Source of the DNA: Prorocentrum cordatum
Taxonomy: Eukaryota
Direction: 5' to 3'
DNA length: 56,648 nucleotides
Assembly: GCA_963575745.1 (NCBI GenBank)
Contig: CAUYUJ010000079.1
Coordinates: 62,001-118,648, forward strand
The position numbers and the translations under genes were made by a program. This document shows positions 16,417 to 56,452 of the stretch, one piece after another. The notes below the pieces were generated by a model. The model saw only the letters and a list, made by a program, of their open reading frames with translations, was not told the DNA's origin and ran no database searches. Every line of letters begins with the position of its first letter. Position 1 is the stretch's first letter.

Positions 16417-16535
16417 GGCGGCAAGGAAGCAATCCCCTCGTAAGGGTGGATGCCCAGTGCAAAGAAAAGGTGAGGAGCTCTCCTCGCGAGAGGACGAGCC
16501 CTGCGCAGTGGTACGATACCGAAGATCGTGTAGCA

Positions 16536-16547
16536 GCTCCGCTGCCA
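16536..16547 (-). promoter_or_regulatory. Primer-binding site (initiator tRNA-Met-like) of element A
   Basis: TGGCAGCGGAGC, 1 nt after the 5' LTR. It differs by one base from the element B PBS TGGTAGCGGAGC. Confidence 0.7.
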
Positions 16548-16548
16548 G

Positions 16549-16650
16549 TGTGATTGATGATACGTTTTCAAGCCAAGGCAAAAGGGGCCGCTAAGAGCCA
16601 AGCGGCGGCGAGTGGCGTACGAGCGCGTCATACACACACTATATATCACA
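16549..16650 (-). repeat. 5' LTR of copia element A
   Basis: Direct repeat of 7134-7235, followed on the minus strand by the PBS. Confidence 0.95.
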
Positions 16651-24175: not shown

Positions 24176-24409
24176 CTGCCCGAGGAGCAGGAGGTGCAGG
24201 AGCACGAGGAAGACGGAGGAGGAGGGAGAGGAAGAGGAGGAAGCGAGGGAGCGGGAAGAGGAGGATGGGCAGGTCGGCAAGGATGAGGAGGAGGAAGAGG
24301 ACGACGACGACGATGGGGAGGGGCTGCAGGGGTGGTCGTGCTTCAGAGGTTGCAGGGGCAGGTGCTGGAAGAGGAAAGCCAATGGCACGATACGAAGATG
24401 GAGAGCCTA

Positions 24410-24474
24410 GATGATGAGAGGGATGAGGAGGACGATGAGGAGGAGAAGGAGGAGGAGGAAGAGGAGGAGGAGGA

Positions 24475-24505
<31 letters not shown>

Positions 24506-24597
24506 GAGGAGGAGGAGGAGGAAGAGGAGGAGGAGGAGGAGGAGGAGGAGGACGAGGAGGAGGAAGAGGGGGAGGAGGAGGAGGAGGAGGAGGAGGA
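24410..24597. repeat. (GAG)n microsatellite
   Basis: Seen directly. Confidence 0.95.
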
Positions 24598-27500: not shown

Positions 27501-28005
27501 GGGGGGGACTGGCTCAGGGGGGGGGGGGGGGGGGAAAAACATCGAGCTTGAATCGGCGAGACATGCAGTAGAGGCCCGACCACAAGAAACCTTCCACAAG
27601 AAACCCAACCCTGAGACCCCAGGACCCCCAGTGAATTTTGGCGTGGGAACGTCGCGCTGCCCATCGCAGAACCGTCGAGACCTAAGAAACCCAGGGCACC
27701 CTAAATGGGCCCCCACTGTACAACCGAGTGCCCCTGACATAAAGGAAGACACGTACAATAGAAACGGCATTAGCAGAAACTGTTGGAGGTCCGCGCGGAA
27801 TTCCTGGATCTGCGCTGAATCCCCTTCCCTGGCGCGCGGAGCGCGCCAGGGGCGGCGCCGGAGGCGTCGCATAGGAGCTCCAGCGCAAATCAAACAAACC
27901 CGCGAGGAGCCCGAACAGTTTATGTTCATGCCGCTGCTCCTTCTTCGCAGACCAAAACATATGTTGCCGCAATGTTGCCTGATTCGTCCGTGGCGGGGAG
28001 GAACA

Positions 28006-28817: not shown

Positions 28818-29360
28818 TAATCCATGCTTGCGCTTCCGCTACTCACCACTCCTGAAGGGGCCCAGGGACAGACAAATGGATAGACACAACATTACCCCCT
28901 CGATTCCCATACTTTCTGGGTTTTCGTCTTCCCCTCCACCTCCTACAGTCAACCAGTATAGTGAGGATGCGCGATAAGGACGCAAGGGCCTTAGACGCCC
29001 ATTTCGACGCTTTTCGAGAGGGGCGCGGCCAGCGAAAGCGGCGAAGGACGGACCGAGGAGGCAAGGATGAAAGGGTACCCTCGGGGAGGCTGCCCACCCT
29101 TCCTGTGCGGGTTGACGGCGTACTTTTTCATAGCTTCCTGGGAATCGACGCCTACTTTCTTCTTCCTGTTAATCCCCCTCCCGAGCTCAACCAGTCCCTC
29201 CTCGCCTCCACCCCGGGCCCGCGGCCGACGGACACCGGACGCGGCGCGCGGCCCGGGGGCCGACGCGGGCGGCCGGCGGCCCCCTGTCGCGGAGCCCCCC
29301 TGCTCAGGAGCACGGGGTACCGGCGGTGCCTCCGCGGCTGGAGGCGGCCGACCTCGGCAA

Positions 29361-29518
29361 GGGAGGGGGAGGAGGAGGAGGAGGAGGAGGAGGAGGAGGA
29401 GGAGGAGGAGGAGGAGGAGGAGGAGGAGGAGGAGGAGGAGGAGGAGTAGGAGGAGGAGTTGTGGAGGAGGAGGAGGAGGAGGAGGAGGAGCAGGAGGAGG
29501 AGGAGGAGTTGTGGAGGG
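29361..29518. repeat. (GAG)n microsatellite
   Basis: Seen directly. Confidence 0.95.
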
Positions 29519-30852
29519 GGGCGGGCGGGCGGGCGGGCGGGGCGGCCATCGTGCTGCCGACCGGAGCGTCGAGCGTACGGTAAGGTCAAAACGTGTATCA
29601 AGGACGGGTTGCAAGGACGCAAGACCCTTGGAGGCCGAAGTTGGGATTCTTCGGGCGACGGGCGACCAGGGCGGGCCGCAGAGGCAAGAACAGAAGGGTA
29701 CCCCAGATGAAGACGCGCGTCCTTACTAGGCGCGTCAACTGTAGGCTCGTACGGCACGCGCAAAGTTTCTTGACACCGCGTCGATCGGTCCACCTTGAAT
29801 CGATCGTGTCCCCGATCGTTCATGATGATGCTGCTGCTGCTGATGATGATGACGCTGATGATGATAATGAGGAGGAGCTAGGAGGATGATGGTGGTGGTG
29901 ATGACGGATGCACCTTTCTTGCTGAAACATTGGTGTTTCGTGACGCGGGTATGTCTTGACCCCGTGGGACTCCGCACACCCTGGAATGGCCTCGCGTGCC
30001 GAGCGCTCTGGGCCAAGAGGCGAACGGAACTGCCACCAGACACGCGCGAGGGAACCTTGCACGAAATGGTCGTAATGCCCTCTGGCCCCTGTGAAGGGGC
30101 CCTGGGACACACAAATAAATACAAACAACTAAAAGGATTCTCCATATTTTCCTATATGTTCTGGGTTTCTGTCTTCCCCCCCCACTGCCCATATTTCCCC
30201 ACATGTTCTGGGGAATCGACGATTACTTGTGTCTGTGTGTTTCTCCTCCCCCTGACCCTGGCCCGCGCAAAAGCTGCCAATCGAGCCCGGTGGCGCTACG
30301 CACCGCGTCCCTCGGTGCTTCCCGCGCCGCAGCTCTCATCCCCGAGCGCCCCCGCCTCTCCTGAGCGGCTTTGCCGCACGCACGCACACCTGCTGCGAAA
30401 GAGGAACGACGGGGGGGCGCTGCTGTGGCCGCGACGGGCCCTCCTCCCTCCTCCTCCTCCTCCTCCTCCTCCCCCCCTCCTCCTCCTCCTCCTCCTCCTC
30501 CTCCTCCCCCCTCCTCCTCCCCCTCCTTCCTCGCGGGGGGGGGGGGCCCTCGGAGGCTCGACGGGCGGCGGAGCGGAGGAGGCGCTGGCGTGCGCGGGAG
30601 CGGCGCGGAGCCAGAGCCCCTCCCGGGCCGGCGCGTGTGGCGGCCGGAGGGGAGGGCCCAGGGAGTGTCAAGGGGCCGCGAAGAGCAGCTCGCGCAGTCC
30701 CGAGAGCAGCCGTCGCAAGAACCACCCTCTCGCACCGCGCGAGCCCCCTTCTTGCATCACAGGAGCGACTCGTCCTGTCATACGAACGGCTCACGGAATC
30801 GCAAGAACGGACAACTCTCGGCGTCGAGCGAGGGGGGAAGTGAGAAGGAGAG

Positions 30853-30980: not shown

Positions 30981-31152
30981 TTCATCCTTCTCACTTCCTG
31001 GGATCCCCCCCTCGCGCGTCGTGAAAAACGGCGGCCAGGAGGTCTTCGGGGGGCAGCAGACGCCACGCGCGGCGCGCAGTAAGGAGGAGCGGGGGGGCGC
31101 TCCTGGCCACGGCAAGCCTGGGCCACCACTGGCGGCCCCGACCTGGATCTCG

Positions 31153-32545
<1,393 letters not shown>

Positions 32546-32559
32546 GAATAATATGGTGA

Positions 32560-32934
32560 TGAGCAGAAGGATTTTCCAAGGGACTTTCCCAATCAGACGG
32601 TGGCTGGACGGATGGGGCTCTCTGGGGGACTTGTTTTGAGTGGCCTCCCTTGAAACACGCGAGACATAACCCAACTCCCGATTTTAGAAGAGGTGAGCTA
32701 GCTTCCGAGAGGCCTCTGAGGTGTCCCCTCCCTTCCAAAGCCCGACAACCACACTTGATGCAGATCCAGTACGGCCCGTAGAAGGCGAGCTCATGGGATG
32801 CATGGCCGCCTCTGGTCCCCAAGGCAAGCTGGGTGTGGCGCGGCTGATTGGAAGGCCGGCCTGGGCACTCTCGGGAAATCCATTCGCTCATGACTTGTTT
32901 ACATGCTATGTTGCTGACCGAGCTGCGGCAATCA
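32560..32934 (-). pseudogene. Probable C-terminal Cys/His fragment of a LINE ORF2 (5'-truncated insertion)
   Basis: HASHELAFYGPYWICIKCG...LRGL reading, embedded between two GAG arrays. The assignment is by resemblance only. Confidence 0.45.
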
Positions 32935-33462
32935 ATGAGGAGGAAGAGGAGGAGGAGGAGGAGGAGGAGGAGGAGGAGGAGCAAGAGGGGGGTGAGGAGG
33001 AGGAGGAGGAGGAGGAGGAGGAGGAGGAGAGGAGGAGGAGGAGGAGGCGGGGTAGGAGGAGGAGGACGAGAAGGAGGAGAAGGAGGAATATGAAGATGAT
33101 GATGTATAGGATGATGCGAATGAGGAGGAGGAGGAAGGAGGAGGAGGAGGAGGAGGAGGGAGGAGGAGGAGGAGGCGGGGAGGCGGGGGACGAGGAGAAG
33201 GAGGAGGAGGAGGAGAAGGAGGAGGAAGATGTGGATGAGGAGGCGGATGATGAGGAGGAGGAGAATGAGGGAGAGGATGAAGAGGATGAGGAAGATGAAA
33301 AGGAGGAGGAAAAGGAGGAGGCGGAGGAGACGGAGGAGGAGGAGTTGTGGAGGAGGAGGAGGAGGAGGAGGAGGGGGAGGAAGGGGAGGAGGAGGAGGAA
33401 GAGGATGCTGCTGCTTCTGCTGATGATGTTGTTGTTGATGATGGCGGTGATGGTGATGGTGA
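32935..33462. repeat. (GAG)/(GAT) microsatellite
   Basis: Seen directly. Confidence 0.95.
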
Positions 33463-39008: not shown

Positions 39009-39932
39009 ATGATGATCATGATGACGTGATGATGAGGAGGAAGAGGAAGAGGAGGAAGACGAGGAGCAGGCGGAGGAGGAGGGAGGAAGAGGAGGAGGAA
39101 AAAGAGGAGGAAGAGGAGGAGGAGGAGGAGGAGGAACAGGACCAGGAGAAGGAGGAAGCCGAACGAGCCGAATGAGACAATGCGGCATGCCCCCTCGCTT
39201 GCCGTGAAGGGGGTCGATCCCCCCTCGGCGCCTGCAGCCGCAGACGGCGCCAAGACGTGTCCCCTGGATCCCCGCCTCCGCCCGAGCGCAGGGGAGGCCG
39301 AACCCAGGGGCGGCACCGAGGCGGGACCGCCCCCCCCCCCCCGGAGCCCACTCACCCTTCCCTGAGCTGCCCCGCTACGCAACACGCAAAACACGTAGCG
39401 TATTGATACGGAGCTCAGCCCGTAGGCCGAAAACGAGGGTCCGATGCGATACGTTCGCAAAAAAACGAGGTCCAACATATGGAGCCAACACGCAGCGCAT
39501 TGACACGGACGTCTTGAGTACGATACGTGTTGCGTATCGAAACGTGCGCATCGAGGCAGCTAAGACCCTTCCTGCTTCTTCTCCTCAAGCCACGCGCGGC
39601 CAGACCACAGAGTCCGGACCACGACCAACTCAGTCTGGCAGATGAGGGGGACAATGCAGAAAGGTTCACAAGCGCCGCCGCGAAGCCCGCCGGACCCCCG
39701 ACCAACTCCGCGCAAATCGAAAAGCAAAACGAGTTCCAGCCCTTCACCACGTCGGTGGCCTTGCAAGCTGGGGCAGCCTGGATGTCCTGCTTCATTGACT
39801 CCCAGGCTTCTGCACACCGCGGTCAGCAAGGGTGGCAACAGGAACGGCCCACAAAGCCATCGCTCCCGCGGGCTGCGCCGCTTCCAATCGCGCCCGCGGA
39901 ACCCTGGGCGCTGAGCTCCGAAGGGAAGCGGC

Positions 39933-40986
39933 TAGGAGGAGGAGGGAGGAGGAGGAGGAGGAGGAGGAGGAGGAGGAGGAGGAGGAGGAGGAGGAGGAGA
40001 GGAGGAAGAGGAAGAGGATGTGGAGGAGGAGGAGGAGGAGGAGGAGGAGGAGGAGGAGGAGGAGGGGGAGAAGGAGGAGGAGGAGGAGGAGGAGGAGGAG
40101 GAGGAGGAGGAGGAGGAGGCAGGCAGCACAACCCGGGCGGGAACCTCGCCAGGAGCGACGCCAGCGGCGCGGACGGCAGCGGCAGCTGCTCCTCCGAGGT
40201 GGATCGATCGAGGATCGAGGATTGGGAACCTCCTCGTCCCTGCCTCTGTGCCTCGCTGCCTCACTTCTGCCTCAGCCTCTCCTCCTTCTGCTCCTCCTCC
40301 TTCCTTCTCTCCATCCCTGCCTCCCTCCTCCACCCTCCTCATCCTCCCTCATCCTCCCTCCCTCCCTCCCTCCCTCCCTCCCTCGCTCCCCCTCCCCCTT
40401 CGTCATTCGCTCCTCCTCCCTCCTCCCTCCTCGGGCGAAATATCTCACAGAGCATCGCCAGCTGGGCGGCAGGGCTGCGTTTTAGGAGGAGGAGGGGGAG
40501 GAGGAGGAGGAGGAGGAGGAGGAGGAGGAGGAGGAGGAGGAGGAGGATGAGGAGGAGGAGGAGGAGGAGAAGGAGGAGGAGGCTGAGAAAACGAACGTAT
40601 GAAGGGGACGTCCTGTCTGATCATCAACCTCGCCCTCCTGTAGGGGGGGGGGGCCGTCGGGCGTCCTGCCTGGTTGTCCAGGAGCAGGATCGCCAAGTGG
40701 TCGGCGGCGGTAAGCGGAGCCGCTGTTTAGGAGGAGGAGGAGGAGGAGGAGGAGAAGGAGGAGGAGGAAGGAGGAAGGAGGAGGAGGAGGAGAGGAGGAG
40801 GAGGAAGGAGGAGGAGGAGAGAAGGAGGAGGAGGAGGAGGAGGAGGAGGAGGAGTGGAGGAGGAGGAGGGGGAGGAGGAGGAGAGGAGGAGGAGGAGGAG
40901 GGGAGAGGAGGGGGAGGAGGAGGAGGGCGGAGGAGCGGGAGGAGGAGGAGGAGGAGGAGGAGGAGGAGGAGGAGGAGGAGGAGGAG
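39933..40986. repeat. Cluster of (GAG)n / (CTC)n arrays
   Basis: Seen directly, with short unique spacers between arrays. Confidence 0.9.
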
Positions 40987-42471
40987 GGCGCGCGGCTCGG
41001 CGCGGTCCGCTCGCCGAGATGGGCAAGCGGCTGGCAGTGACAGCGCAAGCAGCACCAGCTGCCAGGAAGAGCCGCAGGGCGAAGCTGCGTTACCAGAAAA
41101 AACAGAACGTGCCGCAAGGCGAATCAGCTTGTATCGTCATTGCGCGGCCCAACCCATGGGTGGTTCCGTAGGCCCTGGACCTCCTCTAGGCCAATCCCAG
41201 ACTCCACTCGGTCAAAGCATCTGGGGTCAGGTATCGTTCCATAAGTGGTGGCGTGAGCCTCGCTCCCTGTACGGTGCTCCTGGTTCCTCTTCATGGCATG
41301 GGTATGGGCGCACTGCGAATGTCCCAGGCTTGATCTCTTCTTGTGCTCCCTCTTGCACTTTTCGGAGCGGATTCGTGCTACCTAGGTCGCGTAACTTCGC
41401 TATTCGCGCTCCACGATGCGCGTGGTGCAATAATCGTCGTGCCCTGGAGGGCTGGAAAGCGGCACCAACACCAACACAAGGGGGTGCCTCCACCGGGGAA
41501 AGATTATCCTATATACTGCGGTGCGGGTGATCATAGTTCGGCCACCCAAGAAGCCAGAATCTGACCTCCACTATCGAGATTAAGATCAAGCCCCCCTCGG
41601 CGGAGGCAATTGCCGACATTGGTATTCAGATGGTCCTCTAAATTCTGGCTCTGGTGGTCATAGTTCGTCCGCCTAAGAAGCCATACTATTACAACCATTA
41701 ACGAGATCGGGAGGCTTTGTTTTTCTTAAAAGAAGAAGGTCGAAGAAGAGGGCGGCCGCAACACCTCCCGAGTAACCGTGCACTCTGTGGTCAAAGCGGC
41801 CGAGACTCTCGAGTGGCATGACTTGCAGCAGCATCCCGACGTGAAAAAAACACTGGTGAGAAGAGGAGAGCGGAAAAGGAGGAGGAGGAGCAGGAGGAGG
41901 AGGAGGAGGAGGACGAGTAAGTATCGAGGTAGAGACAACCGCCAATACTGCGGTGGGTGATTCCCAGACATCTGACGTGCCATTTTTTCAGCGCGGTGAG
42001 AGTATTGGACAAGGGACCATGAGATAAGGAACCTAGAATCTGGACGACAGCGGGCACCAGATGAGGCTTGGCCATGGACATCGCCGCCGCCCTCATCAGG
42101 CAGGGAATCCCCCAGGGGCTGAAGCCTACACGTTCCTCAACGAACGCCCCCGCCGTGCGGGTTCCCTGGAATGTCGGACCCTCTCCTGGGGAAGCGACAA
42201 GATACCGATACCGTTACTCCCCAGACCTCTCCCGGGGTGCGTTTCACCAACAATTTCGAGGCGAATCCAGCGGTGGCGGCGAGGGCCTCCCAGGAGGCCC
42301 CCAAAGGAAAGAAACGGGCGACGGGCAGAGGTGCGGGCCAGTACCGTTTTTCCTCCTCTGGGCAGTTCCCGAACGAACGCTCCCCCCGTGGCGGGGTCAC
42401 CTGGGAGGTCGGACCCTTCTGCCAGGGAGCTAGTTTTTCGCTCCGAGGCGCCTGCTGGAGGAGGAGGAGGA

Positions 42472-42618
42472 GGCTGAAATCGACGCTGTCATCCCCGTCT
42501 TATGCTGTGTTATATTGCTCTCTTCTCTCGTGCATGACCGCAACCGTTTTGGTTTACAGAGCTCTTGAGTTTACGGGCACCATTCCCCAATCCCCCGACG
42601 GTGGCGGCCGTCAGTTGA
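42472..42618 (+). repeat. 5' LTR of element B (termini eroded)
   Basis: Matches 47718-47870 with about 7 substitutions and a 4-bp indel. Lacks the terminal TG and CA. Confidence 0.9.
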
Positions 42619-42630
42619 TGGTAGCGGAGC
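42619..42630 (+). promoter_or_regulatory. Primer-binding site (initiator tRNA-Met-like) of element B
   Basis: TGGTAGCGGAGC directly after the LTR; same pattern as iMet PBSs such as TGGTATCAGAGC. Confidence 0.75.
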
Positions 42631-42913
42631 GGACCGGTTCGCCGTGGTCCACTCCCGCCTCCGCGGCTCGCGGAGGACTGCATATCGAGCCCTGTGGGTA
42701 GGGCTGCTGGCCAGGCCTGCAGGGAGCGGGAGCACCACGGCGCGGGTTGTGGCGGACCCGCAAGAGCTGGACCACCTGGGCGGAGTCCAGCGAAGCTGGC
42801 AACACGGCAAGACTGTGTGTGCATCATTCCGGCAGCGCGGCACGGCCGCGTGTGCACTCGCGAGCTTGATCACGGCTGCTCTGACAACGAGCAGAACCGC
42901 TGCAACTCCGAGC

Positions 42914-45900
42914 ATGGGGAGAACTTCGAGGCTCGCCTTCGAGAAGGACATCCCGCTCTACGACGGCGACCCATCGTTGTTCGAAGGATACCAAGAGCGG
43001 GCCAAGGACGCCGTCTACGGTCGCATGGGCGACGAGAAGCAGATTGCGACGCCGATCAACCTGCGCAACGGCCTCTCTGGCACCGCATACGACGCGGTGA
43101 GGTCGCTACAACATCAGGAGCTGCTCACCTTCATCGAGGAGACCGTCGATGCTGGAGGCAAGGGCGGCGGCACGGTGACGCGCAAGAGGGCGACGACACA
43201 GGGCCTGGAGTTACTGCTGAGCACCCTGGGCGAGTCCGTCCTGAGGGAGAGGCCCGTGCGCGCCGCGGAGCTGTTCGACGGCGCTCTGTACGATGGAAGT
43301 GTGTGGCGTGGCTCAGGAGAGAGCATGCAGGAGTAAATTACCAGGCGGACGAAGGCGTTCGACGATCTCGAGAAGGTCTCGCAGGAGACCAGCACCTCAG
43401 ACGATTTGCAGGCGTACATGCTGCTGAAGTTTTCGGGCCAGTCGGATCATGCCAGCATCATCAGCAGCGCAGGCAACAATTACGATAAGGAGGCGTTCGC
43501 GAAGGCGCTGCAGATGCAGCACTCAGGTATTCACGAGCGGGATCGAAACTACAAGAAGGACATCAAGCAAGAGGCGCACCGCTCGGACCCGAAGCCGCAG
43601 CGCTACCAGCAGCAGGGTCAGTACCGCCCCCGCCAGGCGTGGCAGGCAGAGCACGACGACGAGCACGACCACTACGACGACGGCGACCACCGCCAGCTCG
43701 ACCACTGCTACGACGATCAGCCCCCGGAAGATGAGATCTACTTGGGCGAGGAGGAGGCTACGCTCGAGGAGATCGACGAGATGGGTCCGGAGGCGGCGGA
43801 GAGCTTCGCGGCGATCGTGCAGAACAAGCAGAGGTTTCAGCAGGCTCGAGGCGGTGGACGATGCAAGGGGGGTCGCGGACGCGGCAAGGGCGGTGGTCGT
43901 GTCGACGGCAGTTCAAGTTCGAAGGACCGAGCCCAAGGTGGAGGTGCCTCAGGCGACGGCGGTGAGCGACGCGCTCGCATCGAGAAGCTAAAGAGAACCA
44001 CGAGGTGCGCCAGCTGTGGGCAGATCGGCCACTGGCATGGCGACCCCAGTTGCCCGAAGTCATCGCGATCGGCGGCTCCACCTTCGGACAGGCCGAAGAC
44101 TAGCTACTTCAGTTTCAGTGACTTCAACGGCGTGGGCGGCAAGAGCGGCGAGTCCAGGATCGCGGAGGTGTTCGTGGCGGCTGCCTCGCCTTCGGTTACC
44201 TCCGAGCTGGGGGCTCGCCCGAGGCCTAAGGCTAGGCCCTCAGCAAGACGGCCGCGCAGGGCGGCGACGAGACGCTAAGGGACAGCGCGGACGATGGGAA
44301 TAAAGCTGCTGGGCTGCCGAGGAGGCGAGGCCAGGCGTTGCCAATCATGGGGAAGCCATGCGTGCACGCGCTGGCGGCGGACCCCAGGCTCTTCAAGGGC
44401 GCGAACGAGACGCACAGGTACTTGACGTGCCACCGGTGCCTGCCCGACAAGATCGGCATCCACGTGGTCAAGGCGCACAGGACCAGCTGCGAGGAGCTTT
44501 GGAAGTATCTCACGGCATCATTGCTGTTCACGCCGAGAGGCAGGATAATTTTCCCGGTGGAGGCGGCACCGGCGGCGTCTACGAGGGCAGCTTCGTCCTC
44601 TACTTCGACGGGCGCTGCGCGGTCTGGCAAGTACGACCGAAGCGTACCCAAGGCGAAGCTCGCAGCGCAGGAGGTTATCACCAAGAAGGCGATGGAGATC
44701 AAGGCGCCGTCCGACGACGAGGAGTGGGACGCGCTCCCGACCGCCGAGGAGTACCCGCACGAGGAGGACCGACACGATGAGCAAGTGTTCGTGGCCTACC
44801 CGGCGGACTTCGACCAAGACGTCAAGGGCCTCGACATCGAGAATGTCCCCCTCGGCAGCTAGAAGATCAAGGTTGGCAGGTACAGGGGCTACACCTTCGC
44901 GGAGTTCGTGGAGAGTGGCCCCGCGGCCCGTGTGTATGGCAAGCCTCCCATCAGGACGGCGATGGCTAGCGACCAGTCCCGGCTCTCCGTTGACCAGTAC
45001 CGGTTGGCCTGGTTCCTGATCTACCTGATGGCGCTGGGCGAAAGGGACCCCCCGTAGCAGAATGAGGACGGGTCGTTCCAGGTGCTGATGAGCAACGGCT
45101 CCCAGGATGGCGCCGAGGCCTACGGCTCCTGCTCCAGGTATCCTCCTTGCACTGCGGTGCTTGACACAGCTTGCCAGATGACAATGCATGGCGCGCCCTG
45201 GAGGGGCAGGTACGAGGAGGAGCTTCTCTCCAGGAAGCTCAAGACGGCTCCAAGGTCTCAGCAGACCAAGTTCCGAGGAGTCGGCGGGGACGCGCGCAGC
45301 GACACGGTGTATAACATGCCAGCGGGCATCGCCAGAATCCCGTTCGCGATCGAGTCCGCAGAGCTCGATCAGGACGCGCCTCTGCTCATCTCCAAGGACA
45401 CGCAGTCCAAGCTCGGGACGGTCATCGACGCGGCGAATGCGGTCGCCGACTTCACCGAGATCGGCGCTTACAACGTACCCCTCTTCAAGACCAGCGGCGG
45501 CCACCTGGACATCAATCTGCTGGACTTCCCAGACCCAGGGGTCTTCGGTCTGGAGCTTCAAGCCTACATCGCTGAGGACGAGCTCGGCGACGGTTTCGAT
45601 ACGTTGGAGATCCCGGAGGCGGAGGTGGCGATGCAGACGGTCGAGGCGTTGGCGACGGAGATGGCCTTCGAGAACCCCAACGAGATCGACTGGGACAATG
45701 ACGAGTCCATCAGGATGGCCAGCTCGAGGCGCGCGAAGAAGGTAAGGGCCATGCACGACGAGCTGTACACCATCGACTCCTGGTCACTCGACATCATGAT
45801 GGGAACTACTACCAGGAAGAGGCGACTACCCAGGGGGAAGACCATTCTTCTGCGGCCAGTTCGGCCTTACCCTGCTCGCCTCGACTACCTTCGGCTATAA

Positions 45901-47600
45901 CTGCGGCCAGCCCTTGGACATCGAGGACGGCTGGGATGGCGCTTCCAGGAAGGCCGACAGACGGCGAGGAGGCAACTGCTGGAGGAGGACCCCTATGTGA
46001 CTATCATCACCATGCCTTGCGGCCCGTGGGGCGAGTGGGGCCGCTGCAACCTCTCCAAGGGCGGAGCCGCGGCGGCTACAGTTCAGGAAGCTCGGGAGGC
46101 TATGAGGCCATTGCTCGCGCTCTCCGACCAGAAGATCGTTGCTGACCGGGTGAGACGCGGCATGTACGTCTTGATGGAGCAGCCCCTTGGTTCAAGCGCC
46201 TACTTCGAAACCGAGATGACCGAGGCGCAGGAGTTGATGAAGAAGGGCTTGCTCCTAGAGTGCACCCCACACGGGTGCCAGCTCGGCTATGCCGACGAGG
46301 AGACCAAGGAGCCGCACTACAAGCTGATGAGGTTCCTGACGACCAGCACGGCAATCGACGAGGCGCTGCAGAACGAGAAATGCTCAAGGGACCACTATCA
46401 CCTGCCGTTGGAGAATCAGAAGAAGACGCGGGCGGCAGCGAAGTGGCCCGACAAGCTGGACAGGCTGGTACTACACGCGGTCGAGCAGCAGATCGACCTC
46501 GACGTTGACGAGCACATCTCGCAGGGGCTCGGGATCCTGGAGAGCTACGCCGTCGAGGACCAACGCGAAGCGAAGAAGCGGAGGCTGCGTGGCAAGCAGC
46601 CCCTGAAGCGTCCTCCAGCTGAGGACGGGAGTCATGAGCCGCAGGGACGTGGACTTCCACCTGAGGACGGGCCGGCGAAGGATCCTAACGGAGTTCGAGC
46701 AGAGCAAGCCGCGGGCCTCGAACCCGTGTTTTCTGCTGAGGAGCGAGACCGTCGGGCGAGATGGCTCACCTATGACCCCGCGGTCAGGCGCGACATCAGG
46801 AACTTGCACGTCAACTTCGGCCACCCGACCAACGTGACGCTGTTGAGGTGCCTGAGGAGGTCTGGTGCTAAGAAGGAGTTCCTGGACTGCGTCTGGGATT
46901 TCAGGTGCGACGCCTGCGGCGCATGATCAGGACGAAGTACGTCCGCCCAGTTCGCATGCCGGGCCGCTATCAGTTCAATTTCCACGTGATGCTCGACACG
47001 CTGTTCGCCCACAATGCCGAGGGCAACACCCACGCCTTCCTCAATATTGTCTGCGACGGCACGAGGTTTCAAGTCGCTTGGTACCTCCACAAGGGCACAC
47101 ACGCCCTTTCGGCCAAGGGCGCGCTAGACACGTTTCTCACGGTGTGGGCGAGCTGGGCGGGGCTGCCCCAATCTATCTTCGTGAACCGTGGCAAGGAGCT
47201 CGCTAAAGAGTTCCTGGCCCACATGCACGAGAACGGAGTGGAGATCCAGAACGCGGCCCTGGAAGCACACGAGCAACTCGGCAGGATCGAGCGGCTGGGC
47301 GGCGTCTGGAAGGAGGCGTGGCATCGCGTGGTGCAGGATGCCCAGATCACAAAGGACAAGGACCTCAGGAACGTGTGCGGTGTCATCAGCCAGGTGCGCA
47401 ACGAGACAGTGATCTACGACGGCTACGCTCCTGCTGGCCGACGCCTTGACGAAGCTCCAGGCGGAGAGGAGCTGCCTTACGAACGCGATGATGGACGGCT
47501 ACGTGACGGTGCAGGTGTCTTCCGAGGTGGTCGCTGCCAAGAAGGCCATCCGGAGCGCGCGGCGCCGCCGCGCAAATGAGCGCAGGAACCAGTCCTGCGC
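42914..47600 (+). pseudogene. Element B gag-pol with stops and frameshifts: Gag, CCHC, protease, DNMT, integrase, RNase H tail
   Basis: IPLYDGDP, ESMQE*ITRR, CASCGQIGHWHGDPSC, VLDTAC..FRGVGG..PLLIS, LHVNFGHP..CDAC, VMLDT, GRIERLGGVWK, LADALTK. Confidence 0.85.
45835..46490 (+). pseudogene. C5 cytosine DNA methyltransferase-like domain in element B (frameshifted N-part)
   Basis: FCG (45848-45856), PLDIEDGWD, catalytic MPC (46012-46020), MEQP, CQLG, HYKLMRFLT, AAKWP. Confidence 0.7.
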
Positions 47601-47717
47601 TAGCGGTGCCTGCGACCAAAAAAAGGCCGTCTTGTCCATATGTGGCCCAGCCTGGGCCCTCTTTTCCGCTGCAATGAAGTTTTCCTCAGGTTTGTCTGGG
47701 CTGACAGCGAGGACGGG

Positions 47718-47870
47718 TGTTGAAATCGACGCTGTCATCCCCGTTTCATGCTGTGTTACATTGCTCTCTTCTCTCGTGCTCGACCGCAACCGTTTTGGTT
47801 TACAGAGCTCTTGAGTTTACAGGCGGACACCATTCCCCAATCCCCCGACGGCGGCGGCCGTCAGTTGACA
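47718..47870 (+). repeat. 3' LTR of element B
   Basis: TGTTGAAATC...GTTGACA, 153 bp. Confidence 0.92.
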
Positions 47871-48383
47871 GGAGGAGGAGGAGGAGGAGGAGGAGGAGGA
47901 GGAGGAGGAGGAGGAGGAGGAGAGAAGAAGGGAAAGGAGAGAGGAGTAGGGGCACCGAGGAGGAGGAGGAGAGGAGGAGGAGGAGGAGGAGGGAGGAGGA
48001 GGAGGAGGGAGGAGGAGGAGGAGGAGGAGGAGGAGGGAGGCAGGAGGAGGAGGAGGAGGAGGGAGGAGGAGGAGGAGGGAGGAGGAGGGAGGAGGAGGAG
48101 GAGGAGGAGGACGAGAAGTAAGAGGAGAAAAGGAGAGGGAGGAGGAGGATGAGGAGGAGGAGGAGGAGGAGGAGGAGGAGGAGGAGGAGGAGGAGGAGGA
48201 GGAGGAGGGAGGAGAGGAGGAGGAGGGAGAGGAGGAGGATGGAAGGAGGAGAGGAGGAGGAGGAGGGAAGGAGGAGGAGGAAGGAGGAGGAGGCAGGAGG
48301 AGGAGGAGGAGGAGGAGGAGGAGGAGGAGGAGGAGGAGGAGGGGGAGGAGGAGGAGGAGGAGGAGGAGGAGGAGGAGGAGGAG
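47871..48383. repeat. (GAG)n microsatellite separating elements B and D
   Basis: Seen directly. Confidence 0.95.
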
Positions 48384-48402
48384 ACCGTAGCCTTGGCTCA
48401 AG
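48384..48402 (+). other. Relic dinoflagellate spliced leader
   Basis: ACCGTAGCC---TTGGCTCAAG is DinoSL with a 3-nt deletion, placed exactly at the microsatellite/element border. Confidence 0.85.
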
Positions 48403-48529
48403 GCCGTTTCCTTCTTCAGGTGGTTTCGCCTCCATCTGGGAGGGGTCAGGGCTCAAGTTTTCTGCCCTCAGGAGGGCACCCTTTTTGAACAGATCACGGA
48501 TTCACACCAGATCAGTGCTCCAGTCAGAC

Positions 48530-50254
48530 ATGGTCCGCGACGGAGAAGCAGTCTGGTGGTGCCCTTGCGGTCGCTACAACAAGTTGCGCTACCAGTCGTG
48601 CCTGTGCGGAACCAGCGTCCGCAACCAGGTCGCCTCACCGGTTGGCAAGGGCAAGGGCAAGGGCGCACCTCGCGCCAGAACGCCTGGTCGGCGCGGGGAA
48701 GAGCGTCGCAACCGTCTTCACGACAACTCGATGCAGCAGAACTCGGCTCAGATCCAGCAGGTCCTAGCCAAGATTCTCCCAGCCACCAAGTCCGTCGCGG
48801 AAGAGCACGAGAGGTTCGTCTCCCCGCCCGAGGACACCAAGAAGTATCCAGTCTTCCGCGACTCGCTCAAGTTTCGCATGCAGGCTCTGGGCTTTGCTGT
48901 TTACGCCGCCCAGCAAGCAGACGCGGAGGACGAGACAGCGGTCGAAGAGATCGCAATGATCAAATACACGTTGTCGGCGCTCAACCCGCTGCCCCAGCAG
49001 ATACTGGAAGCAAAGACGAGGTTGCAGCGCGCAGTAGACAGGCGCAAGGGGCTCCAGACCAAGATCGCCGAGATGGAGGAGTCGCTTGCATGCCTGGACG
49101 ACGAGATCTATGCCATCGAGGACGGCATCCAGCAGCTCGAGCAGTCGCTGGAGGACGAGGAGATGATGGTCGAGGAGGACGACCAGCAGCCGCCACCTCC
49201 GCCTGGAGGTGGCAAAGCGGAGGCGCTGCCCAAAGCCGGGCCCTGGGGGGCTCCCCATCACGGGCCAGGCACAGGGCAGCAGCCCCAGCAGGCGCCAGGC
49301 TTTCCGCCGAAGCAGCCGCCGTCACAGGCGCCGCCACAGCAAGTGCCAGGCTTTCCGCCGCAGCCGCCGATGCATGTGGCAGGAGGTGTGCCGCCACCGC
49401 CTCCGATACCGCACCAGATGGCGCCGCCAGACTTCAACACCCAGCTGGCCCAGATGCTCTACAATCTCGTCTCCAACCAGAACAGGATGGACCAGGCCAT
49501 GGGTCAGATCGTTGGTGCCATAAACAACCTGGGCTTGGGTCAGCCAGCCGCTGGCGGGCCCCAGGGCGTGACTCAGGCACCGAGGGCTTTCCAGACAGCC
49601 GCGGGCCCAGTGCAGCAGCCTGCAACATCACCGTCGGAGGCGGAGGGTCACCCACCCGGACTGCCAGCAGCTGGCACCCACGGGTTCGGTCAGCCGCCGA
49701 CCTTTGCCTTCGGTCAGCCAGCCATGAATTGGAGCGACCCGAGGCACCCGAATCACAACCAGTACCTCTTGGAGAAGGCCGCCCAGGAAGCGGTCGACAA
49801 GGTGCCGAAGTCTACGCCCGTAGAGAAGGACGAGCCCAAGACGCCGACGCCAGTCGGAGGTACAGCTACACCGATCTCGACGACGCCGCCAGCCAACTCC
49901 CTGGAGCAGCAGTTTCACGCCGCGATGGCATCGGGCGAGACCATTCACGTCCCATCGTCAGCAGAAGAGGCCGCGGCAGCTGTTTTGGGCGAGCCATTGG
50001 TCTCGCAGTATCCGTCACCTACTCAGGCATGGGGGCCAGCTTCTGCCCTGGCGGAGGCCACACCCTACGCGGAGATGCTGGCGCCCACGCAGTGCATGGC
50101 CACCCAGGGCGAGGCGATCCCAGGTCCAGCGACCTCGTGCACCTCGCCTCTCACGGCATCGACTGCGGCCTCGGACGGCCCGTCACCGGGCGCGGCCAGC
50201 CGAATGGACAAGAGCCGCTCACCGCCGCACAAGCTTCAGAAGACCGAGGACTAG
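48530..50254 (+). CDS. Element D ORF1, 574 aa (N-terminal Zn finger, coiled coil, P/Q-rich tail)
   Basis: WWCPCGRYN..QSCLCG (RanBP2-like), heptads LQTKIAEMEESLACLDDEIYAIEDGIQQLEQSL, intact frame. Confidence 0.75.
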   Translation: MVRDGEAVWWCPCGRYNKLRYQSCLCGTSVRNQVASPVGKGKGKGAPRARTPGRRGEERRNRLHDNSMQQNSAQIQQVLAKILPATKSVAEEHERFVSPPEDTKKYPVFRDSLKFRMQALGFAVYAAQQADAEDETAVEEIAMIKYTLSALNPLPQQILEAKTRLQRAVDRRKGLQTKIAEMEESLACLDDEIYAIEDGIQQLEQSLEDEEMMVEEDDQQPPPPPGGGKAEALPKAGPWGAPHHGPGTGQQPQQAPGFPPKQPPSQAPPQQVPGFPPQPPMHVAGGVPPPPPIPHQMAPPDFNTQLAQMLYNLVSNQNRMDQAMGQIVGAINNLGLGQPAAGGPQGVTQAPRAFQTAAGPVQQPATSPSEAEGHPPGLPAAGTHGFGQPPTFAFGQPAMNWSDPRHPNHNQYLLEKAAQEAVDKVPKSTPVEKDEPKTPTPVGGTATPISTTPPANSLEQQFHAAMASGETIHVPSSAEEAAAAVLGEPLVSQYPSPTQAWGPASALAEATPYAEMLAPTQCMATQGEAIPGPATSCTSPLTASTAASDGPSPGAASRMDKSRSPPHKLQKTED

Positions 50255-53200
50255 ACTCGGAACAGGGTGAATTGCATCTACCACGTCAGCGACGACGACT
50301 TCACTGGGGATCCGTTCTGACCAGGCCTTTTGTTTCAGGTTCGAGGGTATTCGTTTCAGCCCTCAACTCTCAGCAGCAGCCTAGCAGGTCGATTTTAATT
50401 AAAAGTCCGTCGCAGCAGCATCAGTCTTTTAAGCATCCTTCCTCCCCCCCCACTGTCAGAGACCATGGTCCGGTCGACGCGTCCTTGTTGTGTAAACACG
50501 AGCTCGCTCCCGTGCTTCAGTTGCTGTCAGCTGGCCTCTTGCGTTTAAGTGACGCTCTCACGTTCGCTGCCTCGCACTTGGTTTCGGTAAGTTCGAGGCA
50601 TACAGTTTCACGTGTCGCTAGGCCTAGTGGCCAAGATCTGTCACCACCACCCTGTGGCACTCTCCCTCCTGGAACCCCCTCTCCTGGGCGTGTCAGGCTT
50701 TCTCTGGAGCGCACTTTGTTCAATCCTGGGGACAAATCGGTGAAGTGCGACTTGGGAGACGGTGACAGACTCCTACGTGCTGTTCGTGATAGCGATCCTC
50801 TGTTGCTGGACGCCACGATGACCAGCGACCAATACCACCCAGCTGCCATCATGGCACTGGAAGTTTCCGACAGGGCAAGTGACATCGGAGACAGCATCAG
50901 CATATACACGGATGGGTCCCTTAGGAAGAAGGACGACTACACATCTTGGGCTTTCGTGGTTACCAGCATCCAGGGGGACACGCTTAACTACTACGGGCAC
51001 CTCAAGGGGATGACGGGCCTTTCTGTTCCTGGGGAATCACTACCTACTCTTGAATCCAGCACCTTCTGCGAGCTCCTGGGGATCGTTTGGGCTCTGGTCT
51101 GGGTCTATCAAGGGCTGTCCCTGGGCACCATAGGGACCAATACCATCATCAAGATTTACTCGGACAGCACCAGCGCGCTGGGACTTGCGCAGGGCTTGTT
51201 TGTTCCTTCGGCTTTCAGAGATACCGCTGCGGTTTCTCAGCATCTTTTCGCCACCGTCCAGGCTGCAGTTTGCTTGGCAGTTTACCATGTCTCTGCGCAC
51301 TCGGGCAACCCCTGGAACGAGCTCGCGGACGGGATCGCGAGCGATCAGGATGTTGGCCCCAGTCCCCTCCCTAGCTCGATCGTTCAAGATCTCTACCATA
51401 CCGTTGATCTGGATTGGGCCTGGATCACTCACCTGGACGAGGATCGTCGCTCGGCCTACCCCCTCGATGGTTCGGGTCGTTTGTCTCTCCCCCTCGTCCC
51501 CCATGGGTGTCGTGAGGACTGGATCGGATCGAGCACTCCTGAGGCCCCCAAGGTCAAAAGATCGATCAGATATGATTTCTCTGTTGTCAGTTTCAACGCC
51601 CTTACTGCTAAGGAAGACGCTGATTCCCTCGCTCGTGAAGACGAGGCGGACTTAGGTTCAGCCGCAGGACACTCGGCGGTCCTGATGCGGCAGCAGTTTG
51701 CTCACATGAACGTCCTCCTTGCTGGCATCCAGGAGGGCCGCAACAAAGAGGGATACAGGCTGGCCAACAATTACCTTATGTTTCGTGGCCCCTCACACAA
51801 TGGAAACCTTGGGTGTGAAATCTGGGTTAACGGGGCCCTCCCTTACGCTCGTGCTTGCGATCGGGAGTTCTTCCTGGAAAAGAAACACTGTTTGGCGGTC
51901 CACGCTTCTGCTAGATGCCTCATTTTGAAAATCAACGCCCCTCTGTTCAGGATTGTGGTGGCCTCTTGTCATGCCCCCCACAATGAGGAGCCGTTTACGT
52001 CCCGTCAGGCCTGGTGGAACCACCTGAGCGAGTTATTTTTGCGCTTCAAGGTGGACTGCTGTTTCATTGATGCCAACTCCAGAGTTGGAGTCAACTCGAC
52101 TACTTCGAGGTGTGGAGATCAGGGTTTTCCGCAGGCGCCTGACAGCTCCGGAGGCTCTTTTTGAAGTTTCTTGAGGAGGTCAACCTTAACGCGGTCAATA
52201 CGCTCTTACCTAACCTGGACGGCCCCGAGAAGGCCTATACCTGGACTGCTAACAATGGGAACCAGCACAGGCTTGACTATATTCTGATGTCTGACTATTT
52301 TTACAAAAACATGGTTTCGGTTAACACGTGTTTGGATTTCGACATTCAGAGGGACAAGCCTGATCATTACCCGGTTGTTGGGGTCTTTCGGGCTCTCCAT
52401 AACAAGGATATTGCGCCTCCCAGGGATACCATCAAGAGGGAGCTCACTAAGGACCCCCACCGCCGAGAGGCTTTCGCCATATTGCTGCGGAGTGCCCCCA
52501 CTGTTCATTGGAATACGAATATTAACGAGCATTATCGAGTTTTGGTTTCGCACATCATGTCGTCTGCTAACATTGCCTTTGGTACCCCAGCTTCAGTTCC
52601 CAATAAGCCGTACATCGACGAAGCTTTGCTTGCAGTAATTCATTTCCGGAGGCGTGTCAGGCAGATTATTCGCTCGAGCAGGAGAAAGGATTTCAAGGCC
52701 TTCATTTGGCACTGTGCATTATGCTCGGCGGGCATGCTCGACCTATCAGCACTGCCCGACAGGATTGCTTACCTCGCCATTGAGTTCGTCACCATGTCAG
52801 CTAACTACGGGTGGGGATATACTAGTTTGGAAAACATCATCAGAGCCATGGGCATGTTCCTCCAGAGGTCCCAGAAGATCCTTCGAAAACACATCAAACA
52901 AGCTAGGGACGACAAAATCAACAACCTCGGCAAGGAGCTTAGTGAGCAAGAGTTGGCTGGTCAGGCCTCATTGGAATGGAGCACGCTTCACACTCTGCAG
53001 AGGTTCGGTGGCAAAGCAAGTAGGTTCTGCTCGGACGGCCTACCGATGCGCATCGACGATCAAGGCAAGGTTTTGGACAGCGATAAGGCTATCGCTGACG
53101 AGACACTCCGCATTTTCGGGGCCAACGAGCATGCCAAGATACAGAAGCTAACTGCCCTTTGCTTGGACTATAACGCTCAAGTTAGTACGGACACCCCGGA

Positions 53201-56200
53201 GGAAATCAAGCTTGAAAATCTCTCTAGTCTCAGGACCCTCATGATTTCCCTCACCAGGTCGAAGAAAGGTAAAGCTGGGGGCCTCGACGGGGTCATTCAC
53301 GAGCTTTACCAAGCGGCTGTACCGGAGACGGCTGCCATGCTTTTACCCTTGTTCCTCAAGATGCAGATGCTTTGTCAAGAACCGTTATGGGCCAAAGGAG
53401 GCCTGGCTGCGAGCATTTATAAAAAAGGTCCCTGGGTCGATCTGCACAACGATCGGCAGATTTTACTCGGGTCCACGGTCCTTAAACACCATCATGCTTT
53501 CGTTCGCCGTGCCTTTGTTCAGATAGCCACACAGCTGATTGGCGAGTGCCAGATGGGAGGTCTACCGCATCGAGGCACGGACCTCGCCTACCTCAGCTTG
53601 AGCCTGTTTCAGACCATCTGCGAGCAGATGGGCCTTTCCTCCATCATCCTCTTCTCTGACCTCACCCAGGCTTTCTACTCTGTCATCCTCCAGTTTGTCT
53701 CCTCCCTCAAGGGACAGACTCAGGACTTGGAGGCCATCTTGGACGATTTGAAGGTCCCTGAATGTTTGACCCCCTTCTTAGAGGCCGTGGTGGCTTCCCC
53801 CAAAATCCTGGACGATTTTGTGGACACTCACGTTCACAACATGGTCGCCGAAACCTTCAGGACTCCTTGGTTCGAAGTCAAGGGCTCTTCGGCCCTGGCT
53901 CAAAGCAATTCTGGTACCCGCCCTGGGATGCCCCTGGCCGATTTTATATTCAACATCAGTTTCAAACCCGTTCAGGACGACATACACACTCGGTTAGGTG
54001 CTGCTGGCCTGCGGTTGCAGTTGGACGAGCTTCCAGATGCCAAGCGTGTTTTTCGAGCTGCAGACGGCAGTCAAGACGCTACAGCTGCGCAAGGATCGAC
54101 CTTTGTGGACGATCTCATTACTCTTGCAGTGATTTACGACAATCGACTTTGGCGACCAGCTGTTGAAAAAACAGTCGAGATTGTGCATTCAGCAGTGCGA
54201 GCTCGTGGTTTTGTTCCCAACTACGGCCCTGGCAAAACGGAGATCATGGTCGCGTTTCGGGGCCCCCAGGCCAACAAGTGTCGTGCTGAGCTTTGCCACG
54301 GTCCTGCTCCCAGGCTCCAGATAGACAAGTACGACCTCTCAGTGCCAGCTGCAGTTTCATACAAGTATTTGGGCACCATGGTCGATAGGTACGCTAGCAT
54401 GGGCCCCGAGGTCTCCTACAGGATTAATCAACAAAATGGCGCCCTCAGCACTCTCAAGAAGCACGTGTTCAGGAACCCCAATATCGAGCCTAATACTAAA
54501 GTCAAGTACGCTAAGGCCCTATGTTCCTCGAGGCTCCTCTACAACAGCGAGATATGGTGTGGTCTTACGGTTGCTCAAAGGGATCGCCTTGACAACGCCC
54601 ACTCCCTCCCCTTCCGCTATGCCACAGGGTGTTTTAATGCTAATCCCTTGTTGGACAAAGAGCCAGCGGCCAAAGCACTGAAGTTGGCCAATTCTGTTCC
54701 CGCGTCTATGCTCATTCGCCTAAGGAGAATTCGGTTGGTCTCGAAGCTAGCTCGTTTCGCCCCCAACATCCTGCGGCATATGTTGGATCTGGCCCTGCAC
54801 TTCTGTGCTGGGTGGGCGGGCGAGCTCATAGGTGACTTTGGATGGTGGAGTGACTTCCTGGACCTCCCTGGCCACCACAGGCCGATCGGTGATTTTTCCT
54901 GGTGGATTTTTTGTTCCCTGGATGGGCCCCAGTGGAAATGCTGGTGTAAAAACGTTTTAAGCGCAGTTACCCGTACCTTTGCTGATCAGGCGGACCTGCA
55001 ATGCTGGCACAGCCAGATCCGCCACCTATGCATTGATGATAATATCCCCCCCCCTCCCTCGGTGAGCCTTCCTCCTCCCACCCTTTTATATCCGTGTGAT
55101 AATTGCGACTTTGTCGCTAGGACGCTCGCCACTTGGAAGGGCCACTGTACCAAGGCCCATCCCTCTCTCGACCCAGCCCAGGCCGTTGCACGTGGAACAG
55201 TATGCCAGAGTTGTTGTCGTGAGTTCTGGACCCATCCTCGTCTCTTGAAGCATGTGAGGAGATCCGCTCGTTGCCTTTCTTCCCTTGTCGCGGTTATGAC
55301 GCCGCTTAGCGATGAAGATATCTGCGCTGACAAGGTTGAAGATGCGTTTCTCACCAAAGCCCTAAGGCAAAAAGGTAGATATGCAGAATTCTCAGAGTCT
55401 CCCCCCGTGGCTATCATAGGTCCGCGGCTTTTGGGTTGCCCTTGCTCGCCTGTTTGTGCCTTGTCGCGCCAGCCGGTTGAGGCTCCTGAAACCGAAGTTG
55501 TTCCCGCCCAGATTGATAGACCCTTAGCCACGGGGGTGTATTATATTTTTAGTCTTTTTTCCGGTCAGAGGCGCCCCAAAGACACGCAAGATTACCTAGA
55601 AGGCTTTCTCAGGGATAGCCCCAGGCCGGTTCTGTTTTTATCCATGATATTGTAAACGATGCCAGAGTCGGTGACCTCACCCGCCCTGTGTCTCTCGCTA
55701 TCCTGCTCAACTTCATACGTTCTGATCTTGTGCTCGCTATGTTGTCAGGACCTCCATGTGAAACATGGAGTTGTGCCCGTGCTCAGCCCCCGCCTGAAGG
55801 TCAGGACCGCCCCCGCGTCCTCCGCTCCTCCTCCTCCCTCTGGGGGCTCGGGCACATTTCCCCCAAGGAATGGAAGCAGGTCGCCCTAGGTAACGCCCTC
55901 CTCAGGGCGACCCTGCTGCTGGGCATGGCCGCGGCGGCGCACGGCGCCGCTTTCATCATGGAGCATCCTGATAGGCCGGGCCCCTCCCATCTCCCGAGCT
56001 GCTGGTCCCTCCCCGAGGTTCGGCATTTTACGGGGTTGATTGGAAAGGCCGCTTGTTCGTATGTGGAATTCATTTCGATTGATCAGTGCGAGTTTAATGC
56101 CAGAGGACAGAAGCCGACTTGCCTGCTCACAGTGAATGCTCCGAGAGTTCGTGAATGGCTAGATTTGCTGCCCAACAGGGGTCGCTGCAGTCACGGGTTT

Positions 56201-56452
56201 AATCACCCCCCCCTCCTTGGTCTTTCCTCCCGTGGAGGCTTCAGGACAGCCGCGGCCAAGCAGTATCCACCGAGGCTCTGTCGCCTCCTCGCTGCTGCAG
56301 TTCACGAACAGTGCTCGGCCCTTTCCCCCCCGACCGAACCTAGGGACATATGGGATGCTGTTCACCCTGAGTTAGCGGCGTTTTATACCCCCCTCGATCC
56401 CTACTATCTGGGGCATGGTTGGGATTGGTTTGGGGCGGATTTTGCCGCTTAA
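50255..56452 (+). CDS. Element D ORF2: RNase H, APE endonuclease, RT, C2H2 Zn fingers, C5-DNMT. Two 1-nt frameshifts (~52160, ~55645); start codon uncertain
   Basis: RNH IYTDGS/ELLG/YSDS/HSGNPWNELAD (50900-51330). APE SFNALT/GIQEGR/HAPH/IDANSRVG/RLDYI/DHYPV. RT KAGGLDG/SDLTQAFYSV/GTRPGMPLAD/FVDD/YKYLG. ZnF CDNC..H..H and CQSC..H..C. DNMT LFSG/S.DI..GDL/GPPCETWS/MEHP/KPT/QYPPRLC. Confidence 0.9.

Follow-up and report, generated by a model that had tools for sequence, protein, structure and literature searches.

Few retrotransposons are known to carry a DNA methyltransferase (DNMT) of their own, the cases being long interspersed nuclear elements (LINEs) and DIRS elements in Symbiodinium and Gypsy elements in Klebsormidium. 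As described in the relevant sections of de Mendoza et al. (2018; PMC5890265), these enzymes were found with the Pfam profile PF00145 and are encoded in ORF1, upstream of the reverse transcriptase (RT) frame, in the LINEs, and within Pol in the DIRS elements. Self-methylation of complementary DNA (cDNA) was proposed there for the DIRS case; the LINE-borne DNMT gave no DNA methylation in yeast, and the authors raised RNA methylation. The same sections state that the long terminal repeat (LTR) family Copia, the most abundant retrotransposons of Symbiodinium, "lacks any DNMT domain", and the corresponding part of Chen et al. (2018; PMC5776459) lists only integrase, RT, RNase H and LTRs for the copia elements of Symbiodinium. 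No description of such a domain in dinoflagellate copia elements was found in the literature, with most subscription journals outside the coverage of the search. Here we report a remnant copia-type element at positions 42475-47868 of a 56,648-nucleotide stretch of Prorocentrum cordatum DNA (contig CAUYUJ010000079.1, positions 62,001 to 118,648; the whole stretch is hereafter the window), which holds between its protease-like and integrase parts a domain (hereafter the copia domain) that is very probably a true, highly derived relative of the C5 cytosine methyltransferases. The published census, which found no DNMT in Copia, was based on PF00145, and the copia domain escapes that profile.

As far as the cited sections of PMC5890265 describe them, SymbioDIRS-Dnmt3 and KnitGypsy-Dnmt3 resemble the copia domain in being DNMT-type domains within the Pol of an element that makes cDNA before integration; SymbioDIRS-Dnmt3 has a Symbiodinium host and, as for the copia domain, a proposed role in cDNA self-methylation. 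Both are clear Dnmt3 enzymes found by PF00145, whereas the copia domain is invisible to that profile, is much smaller, and is apparently without a target-recognition domain. Its host is a Ty1/copia element, unlike the PF00145-positive LINE, DIRS or Gypsy carriers of the same account, in which LINEs and DIRS elements are the Symbiodinium hosts, as an earlier note on this DNA had stated for the main cases. SymbioLINE-Dnmt is presented there as a Symbiodinium-specific orphan DNMT lineage on LINEs, and a LINE-like element of the window (48391-56449, + strand; element D) also bears a homologue of the copia domain. Compared by description only, SymbioLINE-Dnmt lies in ORF1 upstream of RT and was found with PF00145, whereas the domain of element D follows RT and is PF00145-negative.

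The window copy of the copia domain is read on the + strand from two overlapping open frames spanning 45800-46926 (frame 2, 45800-46000; frame 1, 45901-46926). Frame 2 contains FCG (~45848) and LDIEDGWD (~45915-45938); frame 1 contains M-P-C-G-P-W (PC at 46012), M-E-Q-P (EQP at 46177), H-G-C-Q-L-G, K-L-M-R-F-L-T, C-S-R-D-H-Y-H, HLPLE and A-A-K-W-P (46435), and continues downstream of the domain into an H..H...C..C integrase zinc-finger-like stretch. All motifs listed in the earlier note were recovered on this strand in frames 1 and 2. A profile hidden Markov model (HMM) of the domain, representing 26 relatives, matched frame 2 at 45848-45964 (profile positions 16-54, E = 1.9e-7) and frame 1 at 45946-46503 (profile positions 49-233, E = 3.7e-62), the latter ruling out a chance motif match as the source of the domain. 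The residues expected just before the domain (R-R-L-P-R-G-K-T-I-L-L) are still read in frame 1, the start of the domain in frame 2 and the remainder in frame 1 again, implying two compensating frameshifts at ~45848 and ~45950, where the earlier note had also placed them. These two frameshifts lie 100 nt from each other and might stem from the assembly; even so, the copy would not be rescued, because three in-frame stops and further frameshifts would remain and the RT is missing. A functional gene at this locus was ruled out by the stops and frameshifts.

We searched 180 residues of 45961-46500 against 1.84 billion representative proteins and obtained 296 unannotated family members at E <= 0.001, 87 at E <= 1e-10 and 13 at E <= 1e-30. 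Relatives that bear an organism name are all from Symbiodiniaceae (Effrenium voratum, Durusdinium trenchii, Symbiodinium microadriaticum, S. necroappetens and three Symbiodinium strains), and the majority of members are assembly or metagenome proteins without one. Among 14 long relatives searched with Pfam, eight carried rve and/or RVT_2, and in each of these the domain came first; five gave no match and one had a zinc knuckle only. In P0166 the domain is followed by rve (residues 1476-1566) and RVT_2 (2057-2293), and P0030 likewise reads domain, rve, RVT_2. The Ty1/copia order is therefore present in the relatives, in keeping with the copia polyprotein proposed in the earlier note, and tblastn collinearity with full-length relatives places the window copy between the protease-like and integrase parts, as that note had it. 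The domain is a regular ~235-residue part of Pol, in the slot between protease and integrase, in a large Ty1/copia clade of Symbiodiniaceae. Three relatives of 4072-4247 aa (P0330, P0331, P0326) join the copia polyprotein to unrelated host domains (dynein light chain, glycosyltransferase and "abcB1" names) and are probably annotation chimeras in Symbiodinium assemblies.

Across 26 aligned copies of the domain, which share 19-64% identity with the first row, five columns show no variation, namely those of the P-C Cys, of both Glu and Pro in E-x-P, of the D-[Q/G]-C Cys and of one more Cys further on. For wider counts, 151 domain rows from 150 listed matches were aligned to the profile and scored among rows with a residue in the column; these include the 26 rows from which the profile was built and are not independent of it. 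The Cys of P-C was present in 114/116 rows and the Pro before it in 83/116; the Glu of E-x-P in 129/132 and its Pro in 125/129; the Lys of K-P-T in 120/124; the later Cys in 111/112; and two His in 99/107 and 105/111. At the putative cofactor site, motif I had an aromatic residue (F/Y) in 77/83 rows, its first Gly in 62/83 and a later Gly in 35/89, and the first and second Asp after the loop were found in 67/93 and 78/97 rows, respectively. Most members, and the subfamily of the window copy, retain F-x-G and both Asp.

The fold was predicted with AlphaFold2 from the 26-row alignment, whose first row is residues 60-302 of the intact relative P0016, and the model scored a predicted local distance difference test (pLDDT) of 95.7 and a predicted template-modelling (pTM) score of 0.91. 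Foldseek returned 80 PDB matches at E <= 0.001 (best E = 9.7e-6), and those listed were all C5 methyltransferases (DNMT3A/B/C, M.HhaI, DNMT2, EhMeth, DIM2); DNMT2 enzymes and a carboxymethyl-transferring DNMT relative were among the fold matches. Against a viral library, the named proteins in the top 29 rows were all cytosine methyltransferases or DNA methylases (best E = 2.4e-8, template-modelling (TM) score 0.61/0.68; Tetraselmis virus 1 protein, 0.57/0.62). The best structural matches overall were compact viral DNMT-like proteins of 210-218 residues (BFVD A0A0A0RJX0, a Lactococcus phage P087 putative DNA methylase and a Tetraselmis virus 1 putative cytosine DNA methyltransferase), with TM scores of 0.49-0.61 normalised to the query and 0.55-0.68 to the target. 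Their similar size suggests that they, too, are without a large target-recognition domain. They differ from the copia domain in being free-standing genes rather than part of a polyprotein, and share 14-17% sequence identity with it. An independently modelled member of the LINE-borne family of element D, of middling quality (pLDDT 66.3), likewise gave C5 methyltransferases only among the matches listed (best E = 6.4e-4). The C5-methyltransferase fold anticipated in the earlier note is therefore supported by the predicted model.

For a comparison of profiles, a 13-row DNMT alignment was assembled from E. coli Dcm, four Dcm relatives and eight phage enzymes, the phage DNMTs being chosen for diversity because a search for Dcm homologues gave only close enterobacterial Dcm (at least 74% identity). 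Aligned to it with hhalign, a 101-row family profile gave a single path of 61 columns (score 36.0, E = 2.4e-4), in which the F-A-G loop, the first Asp, the second Asp and P-C-G-P-W were paired in order with motif I, the motif II acid, the motif III Asp and motif IV. The Cys of PC was thereby placed on the P-C of DNMTs (M-P-C-G in the window copy, at 46012). Of 100 column shuffles, 99 scored 23.5 or less, and a reversed control scored 21.7. The Glu of E-[N/Q/H]-P lies at the end of a predicted strand (residues 123-127) and is equated with the motif VI Glu by fold position alone. In the ESM Atlas the nearest clusters scored 0.96, one being auto-named a cytosine-5 methyltransferase family, and the nearest Pfam-bearing cluster, at 0.87, carried PF00145; we treat these as leads only. 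It is very improbable that the domain is instead an unrelated Rossmann-fold protein, whose PC and E-x-P came to resemble DNMT motifs by convergence: structural alignments covered 189-215 of 243 residues for DNMTs versus 131-180 for dehydrogenases, and the Foldseek matches of both families, the viral matches and the ordered motifs on one hhalign path all speak against it. The earlier note had named two findings that would count against its assignment, namely the lack of any C5-methyltransferase profile or fold match and a PC not conserved in the family; given the fold match and the conserved Cys, neither applies.

Taken together, the domain retains a Rossmann-type core and the Pro-Cys nucleophile of motif IV, and probably also the Phe-Gly loop of motif I, two acidic cofactor-site residues and the Glu of motif VI, and it departs from known C5 DNA methyltransferases elsewhere. 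It comprises ~235 residues, compared with ~280-330 in M.HhaI and the DNMT3A/B catalytic domains, and reads E-[NQH]-P where these enzymes have E-N-V. The model shows a single-residue bridge at the expected strand 2, no clear third strand, and, following the P-C loop, a long hairpin of helices. The seventh strand is separated from the terminal helices by only ~35 residues, apparently leaving no room for the normal target-recognition domain of C5 DNA methyltransferases, in whose place stands a segment with a conserved Cys...Cys-x3-His-x-His pattern. The Cys-x3-His-x-His residues may bind a metal jointly with the D-[Q/G]-C cysteine.

Several results weigh against an assignment to active C5 cytosine methyltransferases. 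The PF00145 check proposed in the earlier note gave no significant match: none at E <= 10 for window positions 45961-46500, none at E <= 1 when the element was scanned in eight pieces, none in 14 relatives at E <= 0.001 and none in four further ones at E <= 0.01. An hmmsearch of all PDB sequences with two family profiles recovered no methyltransferase, returning chance matches only (a glucosidase, a ribosomal protein). The hhalign probability of the joined alignment is just 43%, and its score was exceeded by a single shuffle out of 100 (134.2, from 21 columns at the terminus whose similarity was negative), which is taken as a program artefact yet counted as a miss. The joined alignment was obtained with the 101-row profile only; the 26-row profile aligned to the 13-row DNMT set in short pieces only (motif I, E = 0.019; motif IV, E = 0.051) and to E. 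coli Dcm alone over a 28-column piece around motif IV (probability 3.9%), and global-mode hhalign gave an alignment without meaning. In a by-eye comparison with the DNMT motif descriptions, K-P-[T/S/M] stands where the motif VIII arginines would be expected and R-T..A..[W/Y]-P where motif IX would, and neither those arginines nor the G-N of motif X could be recognised. The cofactor-site residues are also kept less well than the catalytic ones, and the divergent relatives P0083 (Effrenium), P0086 and P0155 are without the motif I Gly and both Asp, retaining Cys, Glu, Cys and His. Finally, the CpG observed/expected ratio of the window element (1.02, compared with 0.78 in the neighbouring LINE and 0.91 in the whole window) is no sign of methylation-driven decay, though this is one copy at one locus only.

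The uneven retention of these residues bears on what the domain might do. A true DNMT relative could use its Cys and Glu for catalysis on something other than DNA cytosine, such as RNA (primer tRNA or genomic RNA, as for DNMT2) or in a different reaction at pyrimidine C5 for which the cofactor is altered or lost. Catalytic-type residues in ~98% of rows, compared with ~72-80% for those of the cofactor loop, would fit this, as would the divergent branch, the missing DNA target-recognition domain, and the presence of DNMT2 and the carboxymethyl-transferring relative among the fold matches; RNA methylation was likewise raised for the LINE-borne enzyme inactive on DNA in yeast, in the cited part of PMC5890265. 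Yet the best fold matches are DNA enzymes, most members and the subfamily of the window copy keep F-x-G and both Asp, and no particular alternative substrate is indicated, and we consider such an alternative activity unlikely. Less probable again is a non-catalytic module comparable to DNMT3L, serving as a structural spacer or aiding the integrase by reading DNA or chromatin, for example by steering integration relative to methylated DNA. Its position directly before the integrase zinc finger, the loss of the target-recognition domain (and, by eye, of motifs VIII and X) and the failure of active-DNMT profiles to detect the domain would suit such a role. However, the two residues of the chemistry, the Cys of P-C and the Glu of E-x-P, are near-invariant across rows only 19-64% identical to the first, which is hard to account for without catalysis.

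On balance, we have fair but not high confidence that the evidence as a whole is best explained by a compact, derived C5-methyltransferase relative within Pol that methylates the new DNA of its element. In intact elements, the domain would be synthesised as part of Pol and enter the particle with it, where it would most likely methylate C5 of cytosines in newly made element DNA, either ahead of integration or in its course; the resulting insertion would presumably match the host genome in its full CG methylation. It is plausible, if somewhat short of an even chance, that intact copies work as S-adenosylmethionine-dependent cytosine methyltransferases on the cDNA of their own element, the chemistry being read from fold and residues. 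Should the domain be active, cDNA could be methylated ahead of integration by thousands of enzymes that the elements encode, adding to the near-complete CG methylation of these genomes and changing the view of who writes dinoflagellate methylation and how new insertions escape recognition as foreign. Should it be inactive, a catalytic fold has still been reused in a polyprotein beside an integrase. The domain represents a profile-invisible variant of the DNMT-carrying retrotransposon, in an element class reported to have none, and a DNMT core of ~235 residues that lacks a target-recognition domain could usefully serve as a minimal model for such enzymes.

A homologue of the copia domain lies at the C-terminal end of element D. 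Compared by hhalign, the copia and element D domains align over 213 columns with a probability of 98.5% (E = 2.2e-15), and the copia-domain HMM matches element D at 55619-56449 (E = 1.1e-9). The collinearity with the element D DNMT described in the earlier note thus reflects true homology; the element D domain itself is not profile-detectable as a DNMT, with no PF00145 match at E <= 10 for 55619-56449. It belongs to a family of its own, whose 12 proteins gave no Pfam match. In element D, RNase H (PF00075, E = 1.7e-4) and RT (RVT_1, E = 0.0068) were also matched, and there is a stretch resembling an endonuclease. The first strand of its DNMT-fold domain (I-F-S-L-F-S-G-Q-R-R) forms the very end of the RT frame (52143-55652), showing that the domain follows RT, and one frameshift lies near 55640. 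The CpG ratio of element D is the lowest of any region measured save its own DNMT-fold domain (0.735). We tentatively suggest that Ty1/copia elements of Symbiodiniaceae carry a minimal C5 methyltransferase which, with its LINE-borne sister family, forms an unrecognised branch of the DNMT superfamily.

The window element itself (Table 1) is a dead, deleted, non-autonomous copia-type remnant, and its copy of the domain has decayed to a pseudogene; lying in an element that lacks RT, this copy cannot methylate anything itself. It retains LTRs, a stretch resembling a primer-binding site (PBS), gag-like and protease-like regions and integrase parts. The LTR pair is 94% identical over 104 nt, and alignment stretches each repeat to ~145-150 nt. 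The PBS-like stretch begins with TGG, the complement of the tRNA CCA end, and may resemble the initiator-Met tRNA PBS of copia elements; no tRNA gene to match against it occurs in the window. With tblastn, the N-termini of P0017, P0166 and P0178 matched the gag-like region at E values of 2e-45 to 7e-46, and its zinc knuckle was recognised weakly by Pfam (zf-CCHC_6, E = 0.22). The parts follow in the order gag (42950-44122), protease-like region plus domain (45118-46920) and integrase core (46926-47432), with nothing further. No protease match was found by Pfam in the element pieces, and the protease-like region is assigned from its position and D-T-A motif. The integrase core is 43-46% identical to residues ~1461-1629 of P0017 and P0166, the region in which Pfam places rve (1478-1570 and 1476-1566, respectively). 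Pfam over the eight element pieces gave noise only, with no rve, protease or DNMT; the copia assignment of the window element therefore rests on its relatives.

Table 1. Features of the copia-type element and of the element D domain in the window (positions in nt)
Feature	Position	Strand	Basis or remark
5' LTR, 144 nt, starts TG	42475..42618	+	Direct repeat family D15
Primer-binding-site-like stretch TGGTAGCGGAGCGGACCGGTTCG	42619..42641	+	Directly after 5' LTR
Gag-like region, CX2CX4HX4C zinc knuckle	42950..44122	+	tblastn with relatives; in-frame TAA 43334
Protease-like region, LDTAC motif near 45160	45118..45700	+	Collinear with relatives; D-T-A motif
N-terminal part of DNMT-fold domain (strand 1, F-C-G loop, P-L-D, G-W-D)	45823..45964	+	Frame 1 to frame 2 at ~45848
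C-terminal part of DNMT-fold domain (PC, E-Q-P, H-G-C, K-L-M, C-x3-H-x-H, A-A-K-W-P)	45946..46503	+	Frame 1 again from ~45950
Integrase N-terminal H-H-C-C zinc-finger-like stretch	46804..46923	+	Translation; collinear with relatives to 46920
Integrase core, third frame (frameshift ~46920)	46926..47432	+	tblastn; similarity to relatives ends here
3' LTR	47721..47868	+	Direct repeat family D15
DNMT-fold domain, C-terminal end of LINE-like element D	55545..56449	+	Homologue of copia domain

The stops of the window element are TAA at 43334, TAG at 44860 and TAG at 45055, and further frame changes occur near 46920 and 47430-47500. Neither RT nor RNase H was found between 47600 and 47720, and the 3' part of the relatives aligns nowhere to the element with tblastn. 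Because the relatives run for ~800-1000 residues more, including RVT_2, with none of this aligning, the window element has lost its RT and RNase H. Both outer flanks consist of (GGA)n, implying insertion into a microsatellite. Trinucleotide arrays of the (GGA/GAG/GAT)n type are abundant in the window (24200-24650, 29330-29590, 31050-33400, 39800-41100, 47870-48400 and others) and yield long poly-Gly/Glu/Arg/Asp pseudo-ORFs, and the copia remnant sits in one such array.

A second copia-type element was identified at 7134-16650 on the - strand, flanked by 102-nt repeats (7134-7235 and 16549-16650) that are 96% identical, with RVT_2 (E = 7.4e-13) and integrase motifs. It has ~800 residues between its protease-like and integrase parts, without a DNMT-fold domain; a weak match to a RapZ C-terminal-like domain (PF22740, E = 0.0024, residues 1243-1308 of the 12445-16587 frame) falls in this same slot. 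Different accessory domains may therefore occupy the slot between protease and integrase in copia-type elements. Elsewhere in the window, a long open frame at 1-3369 (+ strand), which runs off the window start, has a weak match to a PIF1-like helicase (PF05970, E = 0.0082) and may belong to a Helitron-type or other helicase-bearing element. The repeat pairs D17 and D18 (5437-5609 and 27334-27651), ~22 kb apart and 82-86% identical, may be parts of another repeated element.

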